Below are positions 7,211 to 48,435 of a stretch of DNA of 64,000 nucleotides, one piece after another; the stretch's first letter is position 1; each line of letters opens with the position of its first letter. Location: IMG/VR virus record IMGVR_UViG_3300033273_000833, positions 128,001 through 192,000 of that record. One strand, written 5' to 3'. The translations under genes were made by a program, and so were the position numbers. Origin of the DNA: a virus. Lineage: Duplodnaviria; Caudoviricetes. Below the pieces are notes generated by a model. That model saw nothing but the letters and a program-made list of their open reading frames with translations, had not been told where the DNA came from and ran no database searches.

Positions 7211-7366
7211 ATGAGTAAAAAAGCAATAGATAAAGCAAAAAATTCACCAATGGGTAAAAAAATGTCTCACACAGGAAATCAACCTCTTGTAGAGTCTTTA
7301 ACAAACAAGGGTTGCATGGTTCGACCAAAAGTTAGAAAAGCTCAAGAAAGGAGATTAGCCAAGTGA
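7211..7366 (+). CDS. Small basic hypothetical protein (51 aa)
   Basis: MSKKAIDKAKNSPMGKK...RRLAK* read from sequence. Confidence 0.55.
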   Translation: MSKKAIDKAKNSPMGKKMSHTGNQPLVESLTNKGCMVRPKVRKAQERRLAK

Positions 7367-7576: not shown

Positions 7577-9868
7577 ATGATTATCACACAAAACAAATCT
7601 AAAGAAGTAGTTAGTTCTCACGATTTCGAGCAAGTAAATTGCACGATTGATGCCGAAGATATGCGTTATGTTGCATCTCTTCTTCGCAACAATTATTCCA
7701 ATACTCGCCTTGCAGTCGTTCGTGAGATTAGTGCGAACGCACTCGATGCCAATACTGAAGCAGGAGTAAATCGTCCAATCGAAATCAAGTTACCAACTGC
7801 AATGAATCCAACATTTGCAGTTCGTGATTTCGGGGGTGGACTTAGCCAAGAAGATGTTTTCGGTCTTTACTCCAAGTATGGCAAGTCAACCAAGCGTACA
7901 TCCAACAATTATATCGGTGCTTTCGGTATCGGTAAATTTGCTCCACTTTCTTATGGTGACAACTTTACTTGCGTTTCTTTCCATAATGGAACAAAAACTT
8001 CTTACAATGTATTTGTCGATGAGAATGACGATACCAAGATCACAAAGTTGTTTGAAGAACCAAGCAATGAGCCAACAGGTTTGAGTATTGAAGTTGCAGT
8101 CGCAGAAGATGATCGCAAAGAGTTTAGAAATGTTGTGCAAAATTTCTTTCGTTTCTTCTCTGACTCTGATATGCCAAAATTTCTCGGAGTTGAAGAAGAC
8201 TTTATACAAACTCCAAAAAAAGTTTTATCAAGTAAGACTGACGAATGGTTCTTTGTAGAAGAGAATAGACATGGATACAATCATTACTATTCTTATGTTC
8301 TTATGGGTAGAGTTGCTTACCCTATTGATCCAAACGCAATAAATGTAGAAAATTTTGTGTCCGATGAAAGTTCTCGCAGAATAGTTCAACAACTTTTATC
8401 ACAAAGTAATTTCTACTTTCGTGTGCCTCTTGGTTCAGTAAGATTGCATCATAGTCGTGAGTCGCTAGAATACAACAAAGCAACTCAAAAAGAAATTTGT
8501 GCGATTCTTTACAAAGTAAGTAAAGATATTCAGACTATTGCAAAAGAAAAACTTGCCGATAGTGAAGACTTATATGAAGCAAAAAGAAATTATGCTCAAG
8601 TCATCAATGCTCTACCTTATCAAGTAAGATCAGTATTTGAGAATAGTTTCGAGTGGAATGGTATCAAAATTGATAGTTCCTGCTTTCAAAGAGATTACCA
8701 ACTGCAAGAAGACTTAATTATTACTCAATACGAAAAAATTGAAGATAAAGATTCTCGCAATGGTTTTAAGGTGCAAGCACAAAAGTCAAATCGTGTTTTC
8801 TGCCAAGATCATCATGTTATTATGATGCAAGATATTGAATCTTCTCATGGTAATAATCTTAGAGTTCGCACTTTGATGAATGAATTGCCCATTAATGCAG
8901 TCACTATCGTTTACGCTAATTCTGAATGTGCTAAAGCAGAAGTTTACGATAATTGGCAATTTGACCTTATTGATCCAAAGCATATTAGATACTCTTCTCA
9001 AGTCGAGAAAGAGAAGATTGTACGCAATAAAGTATCGGGTACGAGTCGTGCTTCTATTCCCTTGTTCAAAATGAAATTTGACAAATCTAGCTACGCTTAT
9101 CGCAATGCAGACTATTGGCAAAATGTAAGTGATCCAATCAATTCTCTTGAGCTAGACAATATTGAAGGTTCTGTCAACAATAAAATTCTATATGTTCCAA
9201 TCAAGAACTATAAGATTGACAATGAGACTTATGATCTTGACAGGGTTTACAAAATCTGCCAAAGCATCAGAAAGAAAGCAGAAGATAATTCTCAAGAAAA
9301 AAGTTTTGTTTTATTTGGTGTTCGTGCAGGTGATGTCAAAAAATTAGACAAGAGTACATGGATGTCTTTCTTTGACTTTTATGTTGAGCATTGCAAAAAC
9401 ATAATTCGTGAAAACAAGAAAGAGTCTCAATCTGCATACAAAGTAATTCAATTCAGAAAATCATCGAATCATAATTTTGGCGATTATCGTTGGAGTTACG
9501 GAAACCTTTTCTCCAATCGCACATTCAATATTGATACTCTAGGCAAAGAGCATTTGGTTAGTCGTTGTGCAGAAAATTGGAATCTTCTTATGGAAGAAAG
9601 TGCAAGTGTGCGTAAGTTTGAAGTTGCGATCAATGTTGTCAACCTAAGTGATCCCACATGGTTAGATGATGTATTGGGTGTAAAAGTTAATGCTGAATCA
9701 ATCATGGAAGACTTCTCTTTATTGAAGAAAAAATATCCTTTACTTAAAATGGTCGCTAAATCTACCAATCAATGGATGGACTTAGCTAGAAATAGTGATT
9801 ATGATAATAGCGATACAAATGCACAAATTTTACAATACATTTCCTTGTGTGATGGGGTTGGGGCTTAA
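7577..9868 (+). CDS. rIIA: rIIA-like protein (N-terminal GHKL/HATPase domain)
   Basis: LYSN..AVVREISANALDA, RDFGGGLS, YGKSTK, GAFGIGKF GHKL motifs; directly upstream of an rIIB homologue. Confidence 0.9.
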   Translation: MIITQNKSKEVVSSHDFEQVNCTIDAEDMRYVASLLRNNYSNTRLAVVREISANALDANTEAGVNRPIEIKLPTAMNPTFAVRDFGGGLSQEDVFGLYSKYGKSTKRTSNNYIGAFGIGKFAPLSYGDNFTCVSFHNGTKTSYNVFVDENDDTKITKLFEEPSNEPTGLSIEVAVAEDDRKEFRNVVQNFFRFFSDSDMPKFLGVEEDFIQTPKKVLSSKTDEWFFVEENRHGYNHYYSYVLMGRVAYPIDPNAINVENFVSDESSRRIVQQLLSQSNFYFRVPLGSVRLHHSRESLEYNKATQKEICAILYKVSKDIQTIAKEKLADSEDLYEAKRNYAQVINALPYQVRSVFENSFEWNGIKIDSSCFQRDYQLQEDLIITQYEKIEDKDSRNGFKVQAQKSNRVFCQDHHVIMMQDIESSHGNNLRVRTLMNELPINAVTIVYANSECAKAEVYDNWQFDLIDPKHIRYSSQVEKEKIVRNKVSGTSRASIPLFKMKFDKSSYAYRNADYWQNVSDPINSLELDNIEGSVNNKILYVPIKNYKIDNETYDLDRVYKICQSIRKKAEDNSQEKSFVLFGVRAGDVKKLDKSTWMSFFDFYVEHCKNIIRENKKESQSAYKVIQFRKSSNHNFGDYRWSYGNLFSNRTFNIDTLGKEHLVSRCAENWNLLMEESASVRKFEVAINVVNLSDPTWLDDVLGVKVNAESIMEDFSLLKKKYPLLKMVAKSTNQWMDLARNSDYDNSDTNAQILQYISLCDGVGA

Positions 9869-9962: not shown

Positions 9963-11099
9963 ATGAATCAAGTACCATATCAACTCACAGAAAATTCACT
10001 CACTATCTTTTGGGAAGGTAAACCATATACCTTGCGTAAAGATCATGTAAACTTTAAACTTGCCAAGCAAGCAATCTTGGAAGCAAGATATGATGATCTT
10101 GGAGATTTGCTTGATATTACCAAGGCAGTCGAGAACTTTGTCGAGGGCGATATTGAGGTCAAGGATGAAGTTGTTTTCTACAAAGGTCATCGCTTGCATG
10201 GTGTTGTTGTTGAAAAACTACTCGAAATGCTTCGTGCAGGAATGAAAGATTCTGCTCCACTCACCAACTTTATTTCTCGTTTGCAAGCTAATCCAAGTGC
10301 AAATTCAGTAAATGAACTTTATTCTTTCATGAGTTACAAGTCTCTTGCGAATACTCCCGAAGGTAAGGTTTTGGGCTACAAAGGTGTTCAGAAAGACTTT
10401 TGGAGTACAACAGGCAATGCTGATACAATCGTATTGCAAGGCAAAACCAATGATCGTCACCAAATTCTCAATGAAGTTGGTGCAACTATCGAGGTTGCTC
10501 GCAGATGCGTAGATGACAATAAGGACAACCATTGTTCTTTCGGTCTTCATGTCGGCTCATACGATTATGCCAATAATTGGGCAGGAGTAGATGGTAGATT
10601 GCTCGTTGTTGAATTTGATCCTGCTGATGCAGTATCAGTTCCAACTGATTGTGATTTTCAAAAACTTAGGGTTTCCAAGTACAAGGTGATCTCTGATATT
10701 ACTGATACTCGTAAAGAGTTAAATAAACCTGTCTACGAGGCTAATAAGCCTATTTATGGATCAGATGATGATTTCGTTGATGAAGGCGAGTGGGATGACG
10801 AAGATTATGATAATGATTTTGTTGACATGGAAGATGAAGATGAAGATTACGGCATGGATCAAACTGAGCGTGAGGATGATGTTGTTTCTAAAATTCGTGC
10901 ATATATGAATAATAAATTATTGAACGGAGAAAAAGTTTTAATTAAAAACATTGCTGATTTAAGATTTTGCAAGAGTGAAAGACTGACTTGTGCAGGTGTT
11001 GCCGAAATAATAGATCAGATGAATGATTTTTCAATCCATGAGGAAGATGCAAGGGCAAATGTTCCTGTTAGTCTCAAAAGGGTTGTGAGGGATTCTTAA
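9963..11099 (+). CDS. rIIB: rIIB-like protein
   Basis: NFISRLQANPS...ELYSF...EGKVLGYKGV...GLHVGSYDYA...DAVSVPTD...KLRVSKYKV; acidic C-terminal linker. Confidence 0.9.
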   Translation: MNQVPYQLTENSLTIFWEGKPYTLRKDHVNFKLAKQAILEARYDDLGDLLDITKAVENFVEGDIEVKDEVVFYKGHRLHGVVVEKLLEMLRAGMKDSAPLTNFISRLQANPSANSVNELYSFMSYKSLANTPEGKVLGYKGVQKDFWSTTGNADTIVLQGKTNDRHQILNEVGATIEVARRCVDDNKDNHCSFGLHVGSYDYANNWAGVDGRLLVVEFDPADAVSVPTDCDFQKLRVSKYKVISDITDTRKELNKPVYEANKPIYGSDDDFVDEGEWDDEDYDNDFVDMEDEDEDYGMDQTEREDDVVSKIRAYMNNKLLNGEKVLIKNIADLRFCKSERLTCAGVAEIIDQMNDFSIHEEDARANVPVSLKRVVRDS

Positions 11100-11631: not shown

Positions 11632-12170
11632 TTTCAAATACAATTAACAATATAATCCCTTTACCCATCCATATTAATAAACTATATACTTATATACTAG
11701 ATCATAATAGCGAATATATACAATAAAAAGATAAACGAATTTTATTTAAATAATTGATTAATAAAGGTTTAGATTAAAAATACAGAGAAGTGGGTTGAAG
11801 TGGGGGAAAGTGGGTGAGTGTGGTACGCGACTTAAATATATAAAAATATAAGTTAAATTAAAATATTGTAAATTGCGTCAAAAATAAAAGAAATAAATAA
11901 ACTAAATTTTTTTTGATATAGCCAAATAACTTAATAAGAAAATTAATAAAGTATAATGAACAAACTACAAATAAATTTTAATCAAATAATTGCAAATAAC
12001 AATATGAAAGATAGCCGACTTAATTTAATAAATTTTTTTATACATTTTTGCGTTTTAGTTAAATAAAAATTTGAATGAAATCGGGCGAAATAAGATGAAA
12101 AAAAATAGAATAAAATATAATAATTAATTATACTAAATTTTTTGTTGAATTCGGGCGAAATAAAAATGCA
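11632..12170. other. Long AT-rich non-coding gap, origin or regulatory region candidate
   Basis: No ORF of 60 aa or more in an otherwise densely packed region; contains phased GTGG boxes and a 13-bp direct repeat. Confidence 0.5.
11788..11824 (+). promoter_or_regulatory. Four GTGG boxes at 10-bp period (MraZ/DCW-box-like or iterons)
   Basis: GTGG at 11790, 11800, 11810, 11820; first three are AAGTGGG. Confidence 0.55.
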
Positions 12171-12201
12171 CTTGACACAAATAAGAATTTAAATTATAAT
12201 T

Positions 12202-12435
12202 ATGGTATTGATGAGCGAGAAAGATAATAGCGTTAGTTACCTTCAGCACCATATAGACTTCACATTCCCCGAAATAATGATGCAGGAGCAAATAAATGAT
12301 GTAGGATGGATAGATCAGTCGCAAATAATGGGCGAGCCACAAATAAGAGCGTTTGCGAGCTTTGAGGGGTCGAATCTAATTGCCCTGTTCCCCTTCTTTG
12401 ATCCAACAGGGAACTACCCTGTGCAGGAAGATTGA
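12202..12435 (+). CDS. Hypothetical protein
   Basis: TTGACA-17-TATAAT promoter at 12172; start 12202 or 12211. Confidence 0.6.
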   Translation: MVLMSEKDNSVSYLQHHIDFTFPEIMMQEQINDVGWIDQSQIMGEPQIRAFASFEGSNLIALFPFFDPTGNYPVQED

Positions 12436-13010: not shown

Positions 13011-13208
13011 ATGGGTAACATAGCTAAATGTGCAAGAGCAACTTCAATTATGAACAATGTACAAAGAGGGGCATATGTGGGCATGAGTAAGTTCGCCAAC
13101 TATGGTTCTATTGTCGAGGATAGTATCTTCGCACAACAAAGAGAGGCAGATCGCAGGTTGAAGGAGATTCAAGCCAAGCGTCTCAAAAAAGCAAAGGGGG
13201 TAGCGTAA
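13011..13208 (+). CDS. Hypothetical protein
   Basis: Own promoter near 12948 and AAGGAGG RBS. Confidence 0.75.
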   Translation: MGNIAKCARATSIMNNVQRGAYVGMSKFANYGSIVEDSIFAQQREADRRLKEIQAKRLKKAKGVA

Positions 13209-13493: not shown

Positions 13494-13834
13494 CATAAAT
13501 TGAGAAACAAACTCAAATAAATAAAATAAATTGATCTTTAACATTTTTAACACTTTGGAAGGGCTTATAATCCTTCCTGTGGGTGACTGAACAAACCTGT
13601 CGTAAGCGGGTTAAAGTATGCAGATCCCTGTGGTGGGGATGACAGAGTCCAATCGGATGAGTCAAATGGCAAATACCACGCCTAGTCTGTAGTTCAAAGT
13701 AGGAAACTCGAAACTGAAAGTTTACGCCGAAAAGATGGAGGTATCTCAGAATCCTCCCCCACACTATATTTCCCCATCCGTGTAACCCCCACACATCCCG
13801 CCCCTCTCAGGAATATTCTTGAGAGGGGTTTTTT
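13494..13834 (+). ncRNA. Candidate structured non-coding RNA with boxA leader
   Basis: Perfect TTGACA-17-TATAAT promoter with no ATG at +1, boxA-like TGATCTTTAACA, multiple GC-rich stems, strong terminator. Confidence 0.7.
13801..13834 (+). terminator. Rho-independent terminator
   Basis: CCCCTCTCAGGA / TCTTGAGAGGGG stem followed by TTTTTT. Confidence 0.9.
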
Positions 13835-18040: not shown

Positions 18041-18105
18041 GACAAAGTGAAAAAAAATGAAAAAAGGGGTTGACAGATGTCCCCAACTTGTCTAGTATTG
18101 TATAC

Positions 18106-18846
18106 ATGATTAAAACGACACTACTCACTTCAGGTAACCAAAAAATTGTCAAGGGCGAAAAACTTGGTTACATCACAAAAGGAATTCACTTAGCTCCAGC
18201 CAACCTTGCGGGCTACGAAGTTTGCCAATGGCGTTCTAAAGGTTGCACAATGGCTTGTTTAAACACAGCAGGTCGTGGTCAAATGAATTCCGTTCAAGCT
18301 TCACGCATTGCCAAGACAAAGTTATTCTTTGAACAGAAAAAAGATTTCATGATTAAGCTTTGCAAAGAAATCGCTTCAACAATCAAATCTGCAAACAAGA
18401 AAGAAATGAAAGCGGTTTTCCGTCTCAATCTCACAAGTGACATCGCATGGGAAGATGTTTACATGAAAGATCCAAACTATAACATTTTTGAATACTTTTG
18501 TGCAGAACAATTCTACGACTACACAAAGTCATTCAAGAGAATGTGTGCTTATCTTGGCAAGCCATTCACTAAAGATGAACAAAAATTTCCATCTAATTAT
18601 CACTTAACCTTTTCTCGCTCAGAGCATAACGATAAGAAGTGCGAAATGGTGCTTGCTATGGGTGGGAATGTTGCCGTTGTGTTTCGCAATCAACTTCCTA
18701 AGACTTGGAAGGGTTATGAAGTTGTCAATGGTGATGATACCGACTTGCGTTTCTTAGACAAGAAAGGAGTGGTCGTTGGGCTTATCGAAAAAGGTATGGC
18801 AAAGAAAGATGAGACAGGCTTCGTACAGGAAGGAGTGGACTCATGA
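18106..18846 (+). CDS. Gp88-like phage protein (leaderless)
   Basis: LAPA...C...S.GC..ACLNTAGRG...RIAKT..F...RLN.TSDI.WE...FYDYTK...YHLTFS.SE...GDD.DLRFLD..G..VGL..KG.A. Confidence 0.75.
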   Translation: MIKTTLLTSGNQKIVKGEKLGYITKGIHLAPANLAGYEVCQWRSKGCTMACLNTAGRGQMNSVQASRIAKTKLFFEQKKDFMIKLCKEIASTIKSANKKEMKAVFRLNLTSDIAWEDVYMKDPNYNIFEYFCAEQFYDYTKSFKRMCAYLGKPFTKDEQKFPSNYHLTFSRSEHNDKKCEMVLAMGGNVAVVFRNQLPKTWKGYEVVNGDDTDLRFLDKKGVVVGLIEKGMAKKDETGFVQEGVDS

Positions 18847-23637: not shown

Positions 23638-23814
23638 ATGATTAAGATTGAGAAAAACGAAAACATTTCACGCTTTTGGAACATCTTCGCCTTCGGCAAG
23701 TTCGTCAAGGAGATCGAAGGGCGAGCCAAAGCATTCAGCTATGCCAAGGCTCTTGCACAAGAGAATGACCAAAAGTTTTTGGTCGATCACAAAAAAAGAA
23801 TCATTGAGGCTTGA
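23638..23814 (+). CDS. Small hypothetical protein (58 aa, leaderless), paralogue of 20770-20925
   Basis: TTGACT-17-TATATT-6-ATG; MIKIEKNENISRFWNIFAFGKFVKEIEGRAKAFSYAKALAQE... Confidence 0.75.
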   Translation: MIKIEKNENISRFWNIFAFGKFVKEIEGRAKAFSYAKALAQENDQKFLVDHKKRIIEA

Positions 23815-23846
23815 CATTACAACCCAACTATACTAGATTATATACT

Positions 23847-24134
23847 ATGGATAACATCGAAAGAATTCGCCAAGCAGTAGAAAACGCCGAGCAAGGTTTC
23901 CGCCTCGCTCCTAGATTTGCATCATTGCAAGAAGAACTCCAAGAAGAGATTCAAGCTGAAGAGCTTGTAGTCAATCATGGTTTACTTCAAGCAAGTGATG
24001 ATGACATCAGAGAAGAACACGCTTCTCTTGATTCAGTCGAGTATGATATGGATGATGTCGATTATGACATGGACGAGAACGAGGTTGACATGACTTCTCT
24101 CAGTCCTGCAATGCGTGAGATCTTCGGAGAATGA
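23847..24134 (+). CDS. Hypothetical acidic protein (leaderless)
   Basis: TTGACA-17-TAGATT-7-ATG. Confidence 0.75.
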   Translation: MDNIERIRQAVENAEQGFRLAPRFASLQEELQEEIQAEELVVNHGLLQASDDDIREEHASLDSVEYDMDDVDYDMDENEVDMTSLSPAMREIFGE

Positions 24135-29262: not shown

Positions 29263-29613
29263 ATGAATATAGTTTATTGTACTAGTTGTGGCCACAAAAT
29301 CGAATATACATCTCCTTCGCCAAAATTTTGTCCTTCATGTGGTAGTAGTATGGGTAACTCAAGCGCGTCTGTAGCTAGCAGCGCCTCAGTCGAAAATACT
29401 ATTGTTGAAGAAAAGATACCATCTATATCTAAATTAGAATATGAGATAGATGCAAGCAATGGAAATCGAGTAATCTCAGGAAGCGATATACAAAATATAT
29501 CAGAATCTCCTAAAAGAAAAATTTCCAATAGCCAAGGAGGCAATGAAGATCTTATCAAAGAAGGTATGCAGTTATGTAGGCAAAGTAAAAAGCAGACCGA
29601 TATTGATGGGTAG
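29263..29613 (+). CDS. Zinc-ribbon protein
   Basis: YCTSCGHK...KFCPSCG. Confidence 0.8.
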   Translation: MNIVYCTSCGHKIEYTSPSPKFCPSCGSSMGNSSASVASSASVENTIVEEKIPSISKLEYEIDASNGNRVISGSDIQNISESPKRKISNSQGGNEDLIKEGMQLCRQSKKQTDIDG

Positions 29614-30322
29614 AAAAAAGAAACTTAAATACGAAGATTGCGTAGATGTAATTGATAACGAACTACGTAAAAGGAAGCACAAGTGGAGACTGCATGCGCT
29701 TGCATGGATGGATTATGACGATGTTCAGCAAATTATAAGAGCTCATATTTATAAAAAATGGGATCAATGGGACCAAAAGAGGGGACTGGCTCCTTGGATA
29801 AATAAAATTATATCCAATCAAATTAAAAATATATTCAGGAATTACTATACTAATTTTGCAAGACCATGCCTGAACTGTCCTTTTGCGCAGTCATCTGCCA
29901 GTGAACATGAAGAGGGTCATACAGGATTATGCGGATTTACCCCAAGCGGCGTACAATGTTCAGAGTGCCCGCTATACTCAAAGTGGGAAAAAACTAAAAA
30001 AAGCGCTCATGACATAAAAATGCCCTTAGCTCTAGAGCATCATCCCCAAGAAGTTTATAATATATCAGAGCAGTTAACAGATATTTCCGACGCTGAAAAA
30101 AAGTTGCATACTCTTATGCGCACTAAATTGTCTGAAAAGCATTATATTATTTATGATATGATTTACATTCAACATATGCCAGAGGATAAAGTTGCCGAAA
30201 AAATGGGATATAAGAGTAACGAAAAAGGAAGAAAAGCTGGGTACAAACAATTAAAAAATTTAAAAAAGATTTTTGTGGAAAAAGCGAAAGAAATTATTGA
30301 CAAGAAAGATATTATAATATGA
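29606..30322 (+). CDS. Phage RNA polymerase sigma factor (ECF-like) with Cys-rich insertion
   Basis: sigma2-like DYDDVQQ...LAPWINKIISNQIKN; sigma4-like LSEKHYIIYDM...EDKVAEKMG; CLNC...C...CSEC between them. Confidence 0.75.
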   Translation: MGRKKKLKYEDCVDVIDNELRKRKHKWRLHALAWMDYDDVQQIIRAHIYKKWDQWDQKRGLAPWINKIISNQIKNIFRNYYTNFARPCLNCPFAQSSASEHEEGHTGLCGFTPSGVQCSECPLYSKWEKTKKSAHDIKMPLALEHHPQEVYNISEQLTDISDAEKKLHTLMRTKLSEKHYIIYDMIYIQHMPEDKVAEKMGYKSNEKGRKAGYKQLKNLKKIFVEKAKEIIDKKDIII

Positions 30323-47051: not shown

Positions 47052-47656
47052 AATAGCTGGGTATAAGAGCCATAGTTTTGTGGACTAACAATGCTTCCAT
47101 TGTTGATTAAAATGATTTCAGAACTTGCGGGCCAGCTAGATTGCTGCAAATGTATATTATTAATATTTCCGTTATTTGTGAACTCAAAGAAAATTCTTGA
47201 ATATGGATAACCAAAATTTCTGCAAAATTCTGCAAAAAGATAAATGTCTCCAGTGTCGCTGTTGTTTTCGGCTTTATGTTTTATTATAGTTTCATCCCCA
47301 ACTTTATCATCGGTCCTTAATGCTCTTCCATTGTCGTCTGTGATTAAAAAAGCGCCAGTATCTTTTATTCTGCTAGAATGAGCTTGCGCTCCGTCTTTAA
47401 ATTCAGAAATCAAAAAATTATTATCATCATAACCATCAAATTGATAAAATTCAGAAAATTTAATGTTTGAAGATCTGCCTGGTATAATTTGGCCATATTC
47501 GTCTACAAAATTTGGGGCAGATACGTCTCCTGTTCTGTATGGATCCGAAGATTTGTCTCTTACAAATTGATCTTGTTTTGATATGTTGCCGTATCCGTAT
47601 GAACTCTCGCCTATAATTTCACTCAATGAAATTGGGCCTGATCCTGGCAGTGTCAT
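47048..47656 (-). CDS. Shorter paralogue of 46041-47051
   Basis: MTLPGSGPISLSEI...IKFSEFY; ends where the paralogue's glycine-rich part begins. Confidence 0.7.
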   Translation of the reverse strand: MTLPGSGPISLSEIIGESSYGYGNISKQDQFVRDKSSDPYRTGDVSAPNFVDEYGQIIPGRSSNIKFSEFYQFDGYDDNNFLISEFKDGAQAHSSRIKDTGAFLITDDNGRALRTDDKVGDETIIKHKAENNSDTGDIYLFAEFCRNFGYPYSRIFFEFTNNGNINNIHLQQSSWPASSEIILINNGSIVSPQNYGSYTQLL

Positions 47657-48435
47657 TTTATTTTACTCTTTAATTCGTCAATTTGTTTTTGTTGATCTTT
47701 AATAGCTTCAATCAGTAGTCCAATTATGTTTTGGTAGGCAACAGCTTTTTTGCCTTCAGGTAAATCTTTAACTACTTCTGGGATAACTTGTTCAACTTCT
47801 TGCGCAACTAGACCCATGTGAATTTTTTCTTTGTCTTCAGAATCTTTTCTCGTATACAAACGCCCATTGAGTCTTTTAACTTTTTGGATAGCATGAGGGA
47901 TTGGTCTTATGTTATCTTTTACAGAAACGTCAGAGAAAGCAACAATATCATTTGACGCATAAATAGATGTAGTCCCTACTACATTATGTACTTCAAGGGC
48001 TCCCAGAATGTTATTTCCGATTGAGGAAGATTCAATATCTGCTGATCCGTTTTGACCTATAGAGACATGATTGTTAAAACCAACATTTTCATCAAATACT
48101 TTTGCTGCCGTAATATCTTGGGCTGTATTTACCGTAACAAAATTATTACCTAGATTTGTAAGCGCAGATGTGTTTGCGTCTATGTCTGAAATCAGATTCG
48201 TAAATATATTACCAGTTCCTCCTACTGTGATATCATTAGTTGATTCCAGGTCGGTTGTAGTTACTGACAGAGGAGAAATATTAACATCTCCATTTTGAAT
48301 CATGGCTCCTTCTAAATTTGAAAAGGTAGTTTGTTTTGTTTCATCCGCGCTTGAGTCTACAACCACAAACAAGTCTGCGGTAGCTATTTCGTCGTAAGCT
48401 AAAGAATTTAGATCTGAAATTTTACTTTCTGCCAT
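47653..48435 (-). CDS. Tail fibre/spike with Peptidase_S74 chaperone
   Basis: MAESKISDL anchor; SDVSVKDNI...MGLVAQEVE...VAYQNIIGLLIEAIK. Confidence 0.88.
   Translation of the reverse strand: MAESKISDLNSLAYDEIATADLFVVVDSSADETKQTTFSNLEGAMIQNGDVNISPLSVTTTDLESTNDITVGGTGNIFTNLISDIDANTSALTNLGNNFVTVNTAQDITAAKVFDENVGFNNHVSIGQNGSADIESSSIGNNILGALEVHNVVGTTSIYASNDIVAFSDVSVKDNIRPIPHAIQKVKRLNGRLYTRKDSEDKEKIHMGLVAQEVEQVIPEVVKDLPEGKKAVAYQNIIGLLIEAIKDQQKQIDELKSKIK

Follow-up and report, generated by a model that had tools for sequence, protein, structure and literature searches.

An MraZ operator-like array of phased GTGG boxes is conserved in the early region of a family of marine phages

A non-coding gap in the genome of an uncultured marine phage carries four direct repeats that match real bacterial mraZ operators. 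Few bacterial regulators are as conserved as MraZ, whose physiological role is still debated. The array occurs once in the phage genome, is kept in related marine phages and is found in a genome in which no mraZ was detected. We estimate a probability of about one in two that it is an operator for host MraZ, gating a promoter-like phage core and acting at the same time as a sink for MraZ by titration.

A four-box array in a non-coding gap of the phage genome

The stretch of DNA that was analyzed (64,000 nucleotides, hereafter the window) comprises bases 128,001-192,000 of the virus record, and the array lies at ~139.8 kb in genome coordinates. The record (203,067 bp) is that of an uncultured marine phage with 34% G+C; it is classed as linear and has a CheckV completeness of 100%. 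Its genes include those for a large terminase, a tape-measure protein of 2,940 aa and tail-fibre proteins, among them lambda-J-like ones. No DNA match to cultured relatives was found, and the best protein matches to them were 33% (rIIB) and 25% (terminase). About 20 to 24 sequencing runs from 11 studies contain part of the stretch, all of them marine/aquatic metagenomes in which it is present as contigs. Contigs from three marine DNA runs span the array; the sole true RNA run comprises positions 10797-11068, outside the element, and scraps. Elsewhere in the genome, a phage tmRNA gene is located at 66,699-67,062 (L067:12699-13062) with the predicted tag GNKNRVKAFGLKAKKLALAA. Positions 1-330 and 201,088-201,420 form a near-identical direct repeat (96-99% over ~300 bp), which may relate to the physical genome ends; the terminal region at 199.8-203 kb is gene-poor and contains the largest non-coding gap.

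The array occupies positions 11788..11824 on the + strand, the strand of all flanking genes. Its boxes read AAGTGGG at 11788, 11798 and 11808 and GTGTGGT at 11818, and the whole reads ...gagAAGTGGGttgAAGTGGGggaAAGTGGGtgaGTGTGGTacgcgactt... in the window. An earlier note on this DNA had placed GTGG at 11790, 11800, 11810 and 11820 with an exact 10-bp spacing, and this is borne out by the sequence itself. The pattern GTGG-N6-GTGG-N6-GTGG has a single site in the window, which is the array (two overlapping matches), and was encountered in none of 100 dinucleotide-preserving shuffles of the window. In the complete 203,067-bp record the array again was the sole site of the triple pattern, and the reversed-pattern control gave no match. 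AAGTGGG by itself occurs 10 times in the window against an expectation of 4.18 +/- 2.16, and three of the ten occurrences are boxes of the array. The array is far above chance expectation.

The gap that holds the array (11632-12201) is 79% A+T and is the second largest non-coding gap in the genome. The earlier note had described it as AT-rich, non-coding and ~540 bp long; the composition and the lack of coding stand, and the measured length is 570 bp. The same note took the array for the only G-rich island of the gap, which is nearly correct, the exceptions being two small TCGGGCGAAAT islets at 12081 and 12151. In the window's clade, the upstream neighbor of the array is an rIIB-like gene (9963..11099, + strand), which is itself preceded by rIIA (7577-9868).

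The array matches bacterial mraZ operators

Two sources describe MraZ boxes as having a GTG(G/T) core, 6-nt spacers, three to four direct repeats and an A-rich 5' flank (PMC12957436; bioRxiv 10.1101/2022.02.09.479790). For Mycoplasma genitalium, the first source gives four boxes with A-rich flanks, AAAGTGT-N3 ... AAAGTGG (PMC12957436), and the MraZ motif is present just once in the chromosome of this organism (PMC8475190). For Bacillus subtilis, the second source gives three GTGG[A/T]G repeats, a triple seen nowhere but at the mra promoter (bioRxiv 10.1101/2022.02.09.479790). The phage array shares these features: the window has four GTGG boxes in direct repeat, the 6-nt spacers and 10-bp period hold for the window as for each of the 16 arrays described below, and there is a single triple repeat per genome. 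Repeats of the form TGGGN are said to have been described by Eraso et al. in 2014.

In order to assess what the phage pattern represents in bacteria, we scanned the window's first three boxes, as AAGTGGG-N3 three times, against one genome per species (185,579 species, 596 Gb). At least 120 matches in at least 120 bacterial species were obtained; arithmetic on 21 fixed bases and 596 Gb gives a chance expectation of ~0.3 matches. The phyla represented among the matches listed are Bacteroidota, Pseudomonadota, Actinomycetota, Chloroflexota, Planctomycetota, Verrucomicrobiota, Bacillota, Patescibacteria and others. The downstream genes were read at 80 loci among the matches listed, taking open reading frames (ORFs) of at least 90 aa on the same strand within 400 nt. 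Such an ORF was present at 76 of the 80 loci. The first one encoded a Pfam MraZ protein above the cut-off in 65 of these 76, and one more locus encoded MraW; among the other 10 loci are tandem-repeat loci, a transposase and frames that were picked wrongly. Judged by the genes that follow it, the exact pattern in bacteria is the mraZ operator in at least four of five cases, and the phage array is indistinguishable from such an operator. The proposal of the earlier note that the array is an MraZ operator look-alike is strongly supported, both by the published box features and by the occurrence of the pattern at mraZ in 65 of the 80 bacterial loci.

The resemblance extends to setting. Like a bacterial MraZ operator, the phage array is single per genome, shares its strand with the gene that follows and has identical boxes; its orientation and the distance of 50-100 nt to the next ORF in the phage relatives also resemble those of mraZ promoters. 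Unlike its bacterial counterpart, it is not located directly 5' of mraZ at the head of the cluster of cell-wall and division genes (dcw) or 5' of any other dcw gene. Instead, it sits in the phage early region, is followed by a phage-specific conserved core, and has small phage ORFs downstream.

Co-opted host sites on phages include Pho boxes and NtcA sites in cyanophages and LexA and DnaA boxes in coliphages. As in those cases, the array is the site of a host regulator carried on phage DNA at a promoter-like region, with no phage copy of the regulator. It differs from them in that MraZ was not found reported in such a role in the literature searched, and in that we infer its function here from sequence. 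Full-text searches, covering literature outside the subscription journals, yielded no description of a phage-borne operator or decoy for MraZ, in agreement with the earlier note, which knew of no described phage MraZ decoy. Down-regulation of mraZ after Kayvirus infection is recorded in a published account.

Conservation of the array in related marine phages

We gathered 16 distinct arrays from related marine phage contigs, comprising 64 units. Conservation in relatives had been put forward in the earlier note as a check on its proposal, and the array passes it: every one of the 16 versions has the exact 10-bp period. The conserved unit has the form AAA-(G/a)TGG. Forty-six units have GTGG as their core, 12 have ATGG, and GTGT and AGGG are found in three each; GTG[GT] accounts for 49 of the 64, and the ATGG (12/64) and AGGG (3/64) units, about a quarter, fall outside the published GTG(G/T) core. 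Position 3 of the core is G in all 64 units, positions 2 and 4 are T and G, respectively, in 61 of 64 each, and position 1 is a purine in all 64 (G in 49). Upstream of the core, A is found at -3/-2/-1 in 46/37/43 of the 64 units, corresponding to the A-rich 5' triplet described for M. genitalium, and the other spacer positions carry 0.1-0.6 bits. This per-position conservation indicates that the cores and the 10-bp phase have been kept while the spacers drift.

Several surveys delimit the distribution of the array. Among 49 rIIB-relative loci, exact GTGG triples were found in six, and two further arrays were recognized at L020 (through the flanking ACGCGAC) and L031 (through a looser score). 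A scan of IMG/VR with TACGCGACTT-N-AATATATA, derived from the core that follows the boxes, returned 12 contigs, and phased boxes lay directly 5' of the core in all 12. Diverged forms of the core are present in L073, L077, L079, L083 and L031. In 17 whole related records, RTGG-N6 repeated three times identified real arrays in eight, and the reversed pattern gave none in 17; two extra matches made up of ATGG only lie inside coding DNA, look like chance and were set aside. The gap between box 4 and the core is 2 nt shorter in the window's clade than in the other arrays.

The genes around the array are not equally constant. A 65-aa ORF (window 13011-13208) is present downstream in all eight of the other distinct loci compared. 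The upstream neighbor differs: one clade has rIIB with small genes at this place, and another has an ATP-dependent DNA ligase. The array therefore travels with the downstream block and not with the upstream genes. In the relatives, a lysine/asparagine-rich ORF of 52-73 aa starts 50-100 nt past the core, directly after the array (L053:2552-2731, L054:2603-2806 and L022:5948-6106), and ends in the C terminus RN(K/S)(Y/H)GFP; it matched no PHROG family. The window's clade has the array without an intact form of this small ORF, and G011 has the small ORF with most boxes lost, only GTGGTGTGG being left ahead of a diverged core. Either of the two can thus be kept where the other is lost, and the array is therefore more than a switch of the small ORF. 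In G004, the core is retained without boxes.

Two further observations concern this region. Contigs L021 (G010) and L005 (G002), recorded as complete, end inside or ~600 nt past rIIB, and assemblies seem to break at the AT-rich gap region. Within the early block, a manA RNA motif (RF01745, 85 bits, E 3e-20) is present at window 13557-13767 on the + strand; this stretch is kept in relatives, where it appears as a spurious minus-strand ORF.

Other elements of the gap

Directly 3' of box 4 lies the conserved core TACGCGACTTAAATATATAAAAATA (11824..11848, + strand), which is present in a single copy in the genome even when four mismatches are allowed. It holds a -10-like TATAAA/TATAAT that begins ~19-23 nt from where box 4 starts, and it may be a promoter. 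No convincing -35/-10 pair could be assigned within it and a consensus promoter scan called none there, so the core is termed a promoter by inference only. The order of boxes before promoter also is found in Bacteroidota loci by our own reading. On the other side of the array, a weak sigma-70-like TTGATT ... TAAAAAT was noted by eye just 5' of box 1 (11754..11781, + strand); it is absent from the list given by the consensus promoter scan. This element would match the promoter-then-boxes order of many bacterial mraZ promoters, and by our own reading a TTGAC-type promoter lies just 5' of box 1 at the mraZ loci of many other phyla. A conserved motif, ATAAAGGGATT, was observed 10-30 nt 5' of the first box in relatives (e.g., L052, L053, L056, L057, L031 and L077). 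Its form in the window is AATAAAGGTTTAG at 11760-11772, and a motif of this type persists in G011 despite the decayed boxes.

No other 300 bp of the genome are as AT-rich as 11851..12150 (83.7% A+T), which start 27 bp past box 4 and are either the remnant of a degraded gene or a candidate unwinding region. They contain a 36-aa ORF (11956..12066, + strand) in the position of the 52-73 aa ORF of relatives, which probably is the decayed leftover of that small gene. Further downstream, TCGGGCGAAAT is present as two direct copies on the + strand, at 12081-12091 and 12151-12161, 70 bp apart. The 203-kb genome has no copies beyond these two, and the pair may be an operator for a different regulator. 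The second copy adjoins the -35 of a perfect TTGACA-17-TATAAT promoter-like site (12172..12200, + strand; 12 of 12 consensus matches) that precedes the ORF at 12202-12435.

The early region and a host lead

Sites of the form TTGACA-N16-18-TAnnnT number 39 in the genome, and 18 of them lie directly 5' of genes (17 at 108-151 kb and one at 45.8 kb). Of the 15 Bacteroidetes-type TTTG...TAnnTTTG sites, one precedes a gene. Because the TTGACA-type gene promoters cluster at 108-151 kb, the array appears to lie inside an early region that is read by the host polymerase. A 259-aa protein encoded at window 29543-30322 (+ strand) is a possible phage sigma factor; its match to sigma-70 region 2 is weak (Pfam E 1.4e-4, below the cut-off), and its match to a PHROG sigma factor has an E of 2e-4.

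The genome also carries Planctomycetota-type PSCyt2/PSD1 (DUF1549/DUF1553) and DUF1501 genes at 104,263-108,243 (L069:14263-18243). The Atlas clusters nearest to the DUF1501 protein are commonest in Planctomycetota, and its identity reaches 54% among the 201 Planctomycetota genomes sampled and is 36% in a single Verrucomicrobiae genome, the sampling of other phyla having been unequal. We take this Planctomycetota-type protein as a lead to the host only. At one Planctomycetota locus (L165), the array pattern lies directly before a Pfam-confirmed mraZ.

GTGG arrays in other phages

IMG/VR was scanned with AGTGG-N5 repeated three times. This gave at least 118 matches and the reversed control at least 113, numbers from which no enrichment can be read. 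Among the matches listed, 26 of the 80 loci examined form one family with conserved flanks that is unrelated to the window phage. In this family, two to five perfect DnaA boxes (GTTATCCACAGG) lie ~40 nt 5' of AGTGGAG-type triple boxes, which are followed by CAAACCT repeats; an example is found at L269:1180-1420 on the minus strand, and the 25 other loci are within L221-L300. No Rfam family and no cultured relative was found for it. The family resembles the window array in having three GTGG boxes with a 10-bp period in non-coding phage DNA. It differs in the GTGGAG flavor of its boxes, its two to five perfect TTATCCACA boxes and its CAAACCT repeats, and it has no sequence similarity to the window's core. 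The neighborhood of DnaA and AGTGGAG boxes could be either an origin or a hub of sites for host cell-cycle regulators. Several further small families with three to five phased boxes in non-coding DNA were seen among the matches listed, and by these sequences GTGG arrays appear to be recurrent in phage intergenic DNA.

Alternative readings of the array

The search for a phage mraZ that the earlier note had suggested returned none: PF02381 (MraZ) had no match anywhere in the 203-kb genome even at E = 10, and control genomes responded. As the phage is without its own mraZ, host MraZ is the probable binder. The array might instead be the operator of a phage-encoded regulator, either P0001 or a small unannotated protein, that happens to share MraZ geometry, with no selected role for host MraZ; we consider this unlikely. 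P0001 is a 98-aa SpoVT/AbrB-MazE-type protein (genome 125,078-125,374; L070:17078-17374; PF04014, E 1.9e-7, above the cut-off) and is encoded by the sole AbrB-fold gene of the phage. Its fold superfamily is that of MraZ, and AbrB sites have the form TGGNA. By our own reading of its sequence, P0001 is without the Asp-x-x-x-Arg signature, which one source ties to MraZ DNA binding in B. subtilis (bioRxiv 10.1101/2022.02.09.479790). Relatives of P0001 are present in 12 of the 17 related records. Three array-bearing genomes, G005 and G009 (both 100% complete) and G012 (93%), yielded none, and the four records G002, G010, G011 and G017, which show no array, have one; for G002 and G010, the lack of the array is unsafe, since these two contigs stop at rIIB or shortly past it, a possible assembly artefact. 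The near-complete array-bearing G005, G009 and G012 lack P0001, which therefore is not an obligatory partner of the array, and we rejected it as the array's regulator because gene and array do not occur together across relatives. When the 251 predicted proteins were tabulated for presence or absence in array-bearing (G001, G005, G007 and G009) versus array-lacking (G002, G010 and G011) genomes, four of the 251 genes co-varied perfectly with the array, in a comparison of only seven related genomes in which the status of G002 and G010 is unsafe. These genes encode a basic 51-aa peptide (7211-7366), a GP88-family protein (18070-18846), an acidic 107-aa protein (23811-24134) and a tail-fibre-like protein (47653-48435). 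No recognized DNA-binding domain was found in any of the four. Most small early genes are without annotation, and any of the 43 genes common to all seven genomes could in principle encode an array binder. A phage regulator would, however, require an unexplained letter-for-letter convergence on a bacterial operator, and because of that match a host factor would be the more economical binder.

Another candidate, which the earlier note had raised, is a replication origin, in which the boxes would serve as iterons or would control a priming promoter, with the AT-rich DNA as an unwinding element. The data weaken this alternative, and we give it a low probability. Like the iteron- or promoter-primed origins of other phages (lambda ori; T4 oriF/oriG), the locus has tandem repeats that are unique in the genome next to the most AT-rich DNA, which begins within 27 bp of box 4 in the second largest gap. 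In T4 oriF/oriG, a promoter is followed by an unwinding region, and the present layout is the same in a phage that has a UvsX-like recombinase and rII genes. The remainder of its own replication set consists of a DnaB-like helicase, a primase, Pol III alpha and a clamp-loader-like ATPase, and the unrelated AGTGGAG lineage, with its neighboring DnaA boxes and further repeats, offers an origin-like setting for comparable boxes. Unlike at those phage origins, however, no cognate initiator gene was recognized among the 251 called ORFs with Pfam (~240 ORFs) and PHROGs (55), four window ORFs being in neither set, and the replication genes lie ~85 kb from the array. Only two perfect DnaA boxes exist in the genome, none of them within 3 kb of the array. 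The GC-skew check proposed in the earlier note went against an origin: cumulative skew rises smoothly across 125-150 kb, with no inflection at 139.8 kb and no strand switch. The repeat unit is much shorter than in the known cases, a 4-nt core being short for an initiator iteron, and the AT-rich DNA past the core is partly a conserved small ORF in relatives. An origin role and MraZ binding can coexist. Least probable of all is some other role or none under selection, such as a pac site, a G-quadruplex, a structured RNA or host DNA that was captured and left as a relic. Small-terminase sites typically are helically phased short repeats, and the array is both phased in this way and single copy; against a pac site, the terminase gene is 21 kb off and the contigs of relatives do not end at the element. 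A G-quadruplex was rejected because TGG alone, and not the length of the G run, is kept in relatives. For structured RNA, no Rfam family covers the gap (the best was a tmRNA-like match, E 0.18), no tRNA was found, and folding was no better than that of shuffles (RNA z = +1.73, worse; DNA z = -0.41, ordinary). A neutral relic does not fit an element conserved across rIIB lineages of only ~60% identity. A phage-polymerase or late promoter consensus also was set aside, the core being single copy and TATAAATA preceding only one gene.

Discussion

We propose that the phage carries, in this array, its own copy of the bacterial MraZ operator, with four AAAGTGG-type boxes disposed on one face of the helix. 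If the host has MraZ, the ring-shaped oligomer of that protein would very likely bind them. The boxes stand just 5' of a TATA-rich conserved core, with box 4 over what would be the -35 position. This core precedes a small early gene in relatives and heads a conserved block of small genes in all of them. Host MraZ could in this way gate a phage promoter, either as a repressor or as a stand-in activator. As the phage DNA multiplied, the many copies of the operator would draw MraZ away from the single division/cell-wall promoter of the host. The decoy and the coupling to host division state that the earlier note put forward are among these putative functions.

A broader interpretation is more tentative. 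It is possible that this family of ~200-kb marine siphophages keeps a working MraZ operator without mraZ as a protein-free device that both reads and drains a division regulator of the host. MraZ might hold one phage promoter until it is outnumbered by copies of phage DNA, and the same titration might release or starve the host's division/cell-wall operon; replication may even be primed from the array through the AT-rich DNA that follows.

If this were true, then together with the DnaA-box arrays of the second lineage it would mean that phages are commonly wired to DnaA and MraZ as the two cell-cycle regulators of the host. A conserved MraZ operator on a phage would be a natural case of a virus that couples its early program to the division and cell-wall control of its host. 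Alternatively, the phage would disturb that control by DNA titration alone. In either case, the array would provide a sequence signature by which similar host-regulator sites may be spotted in uncultured phages.
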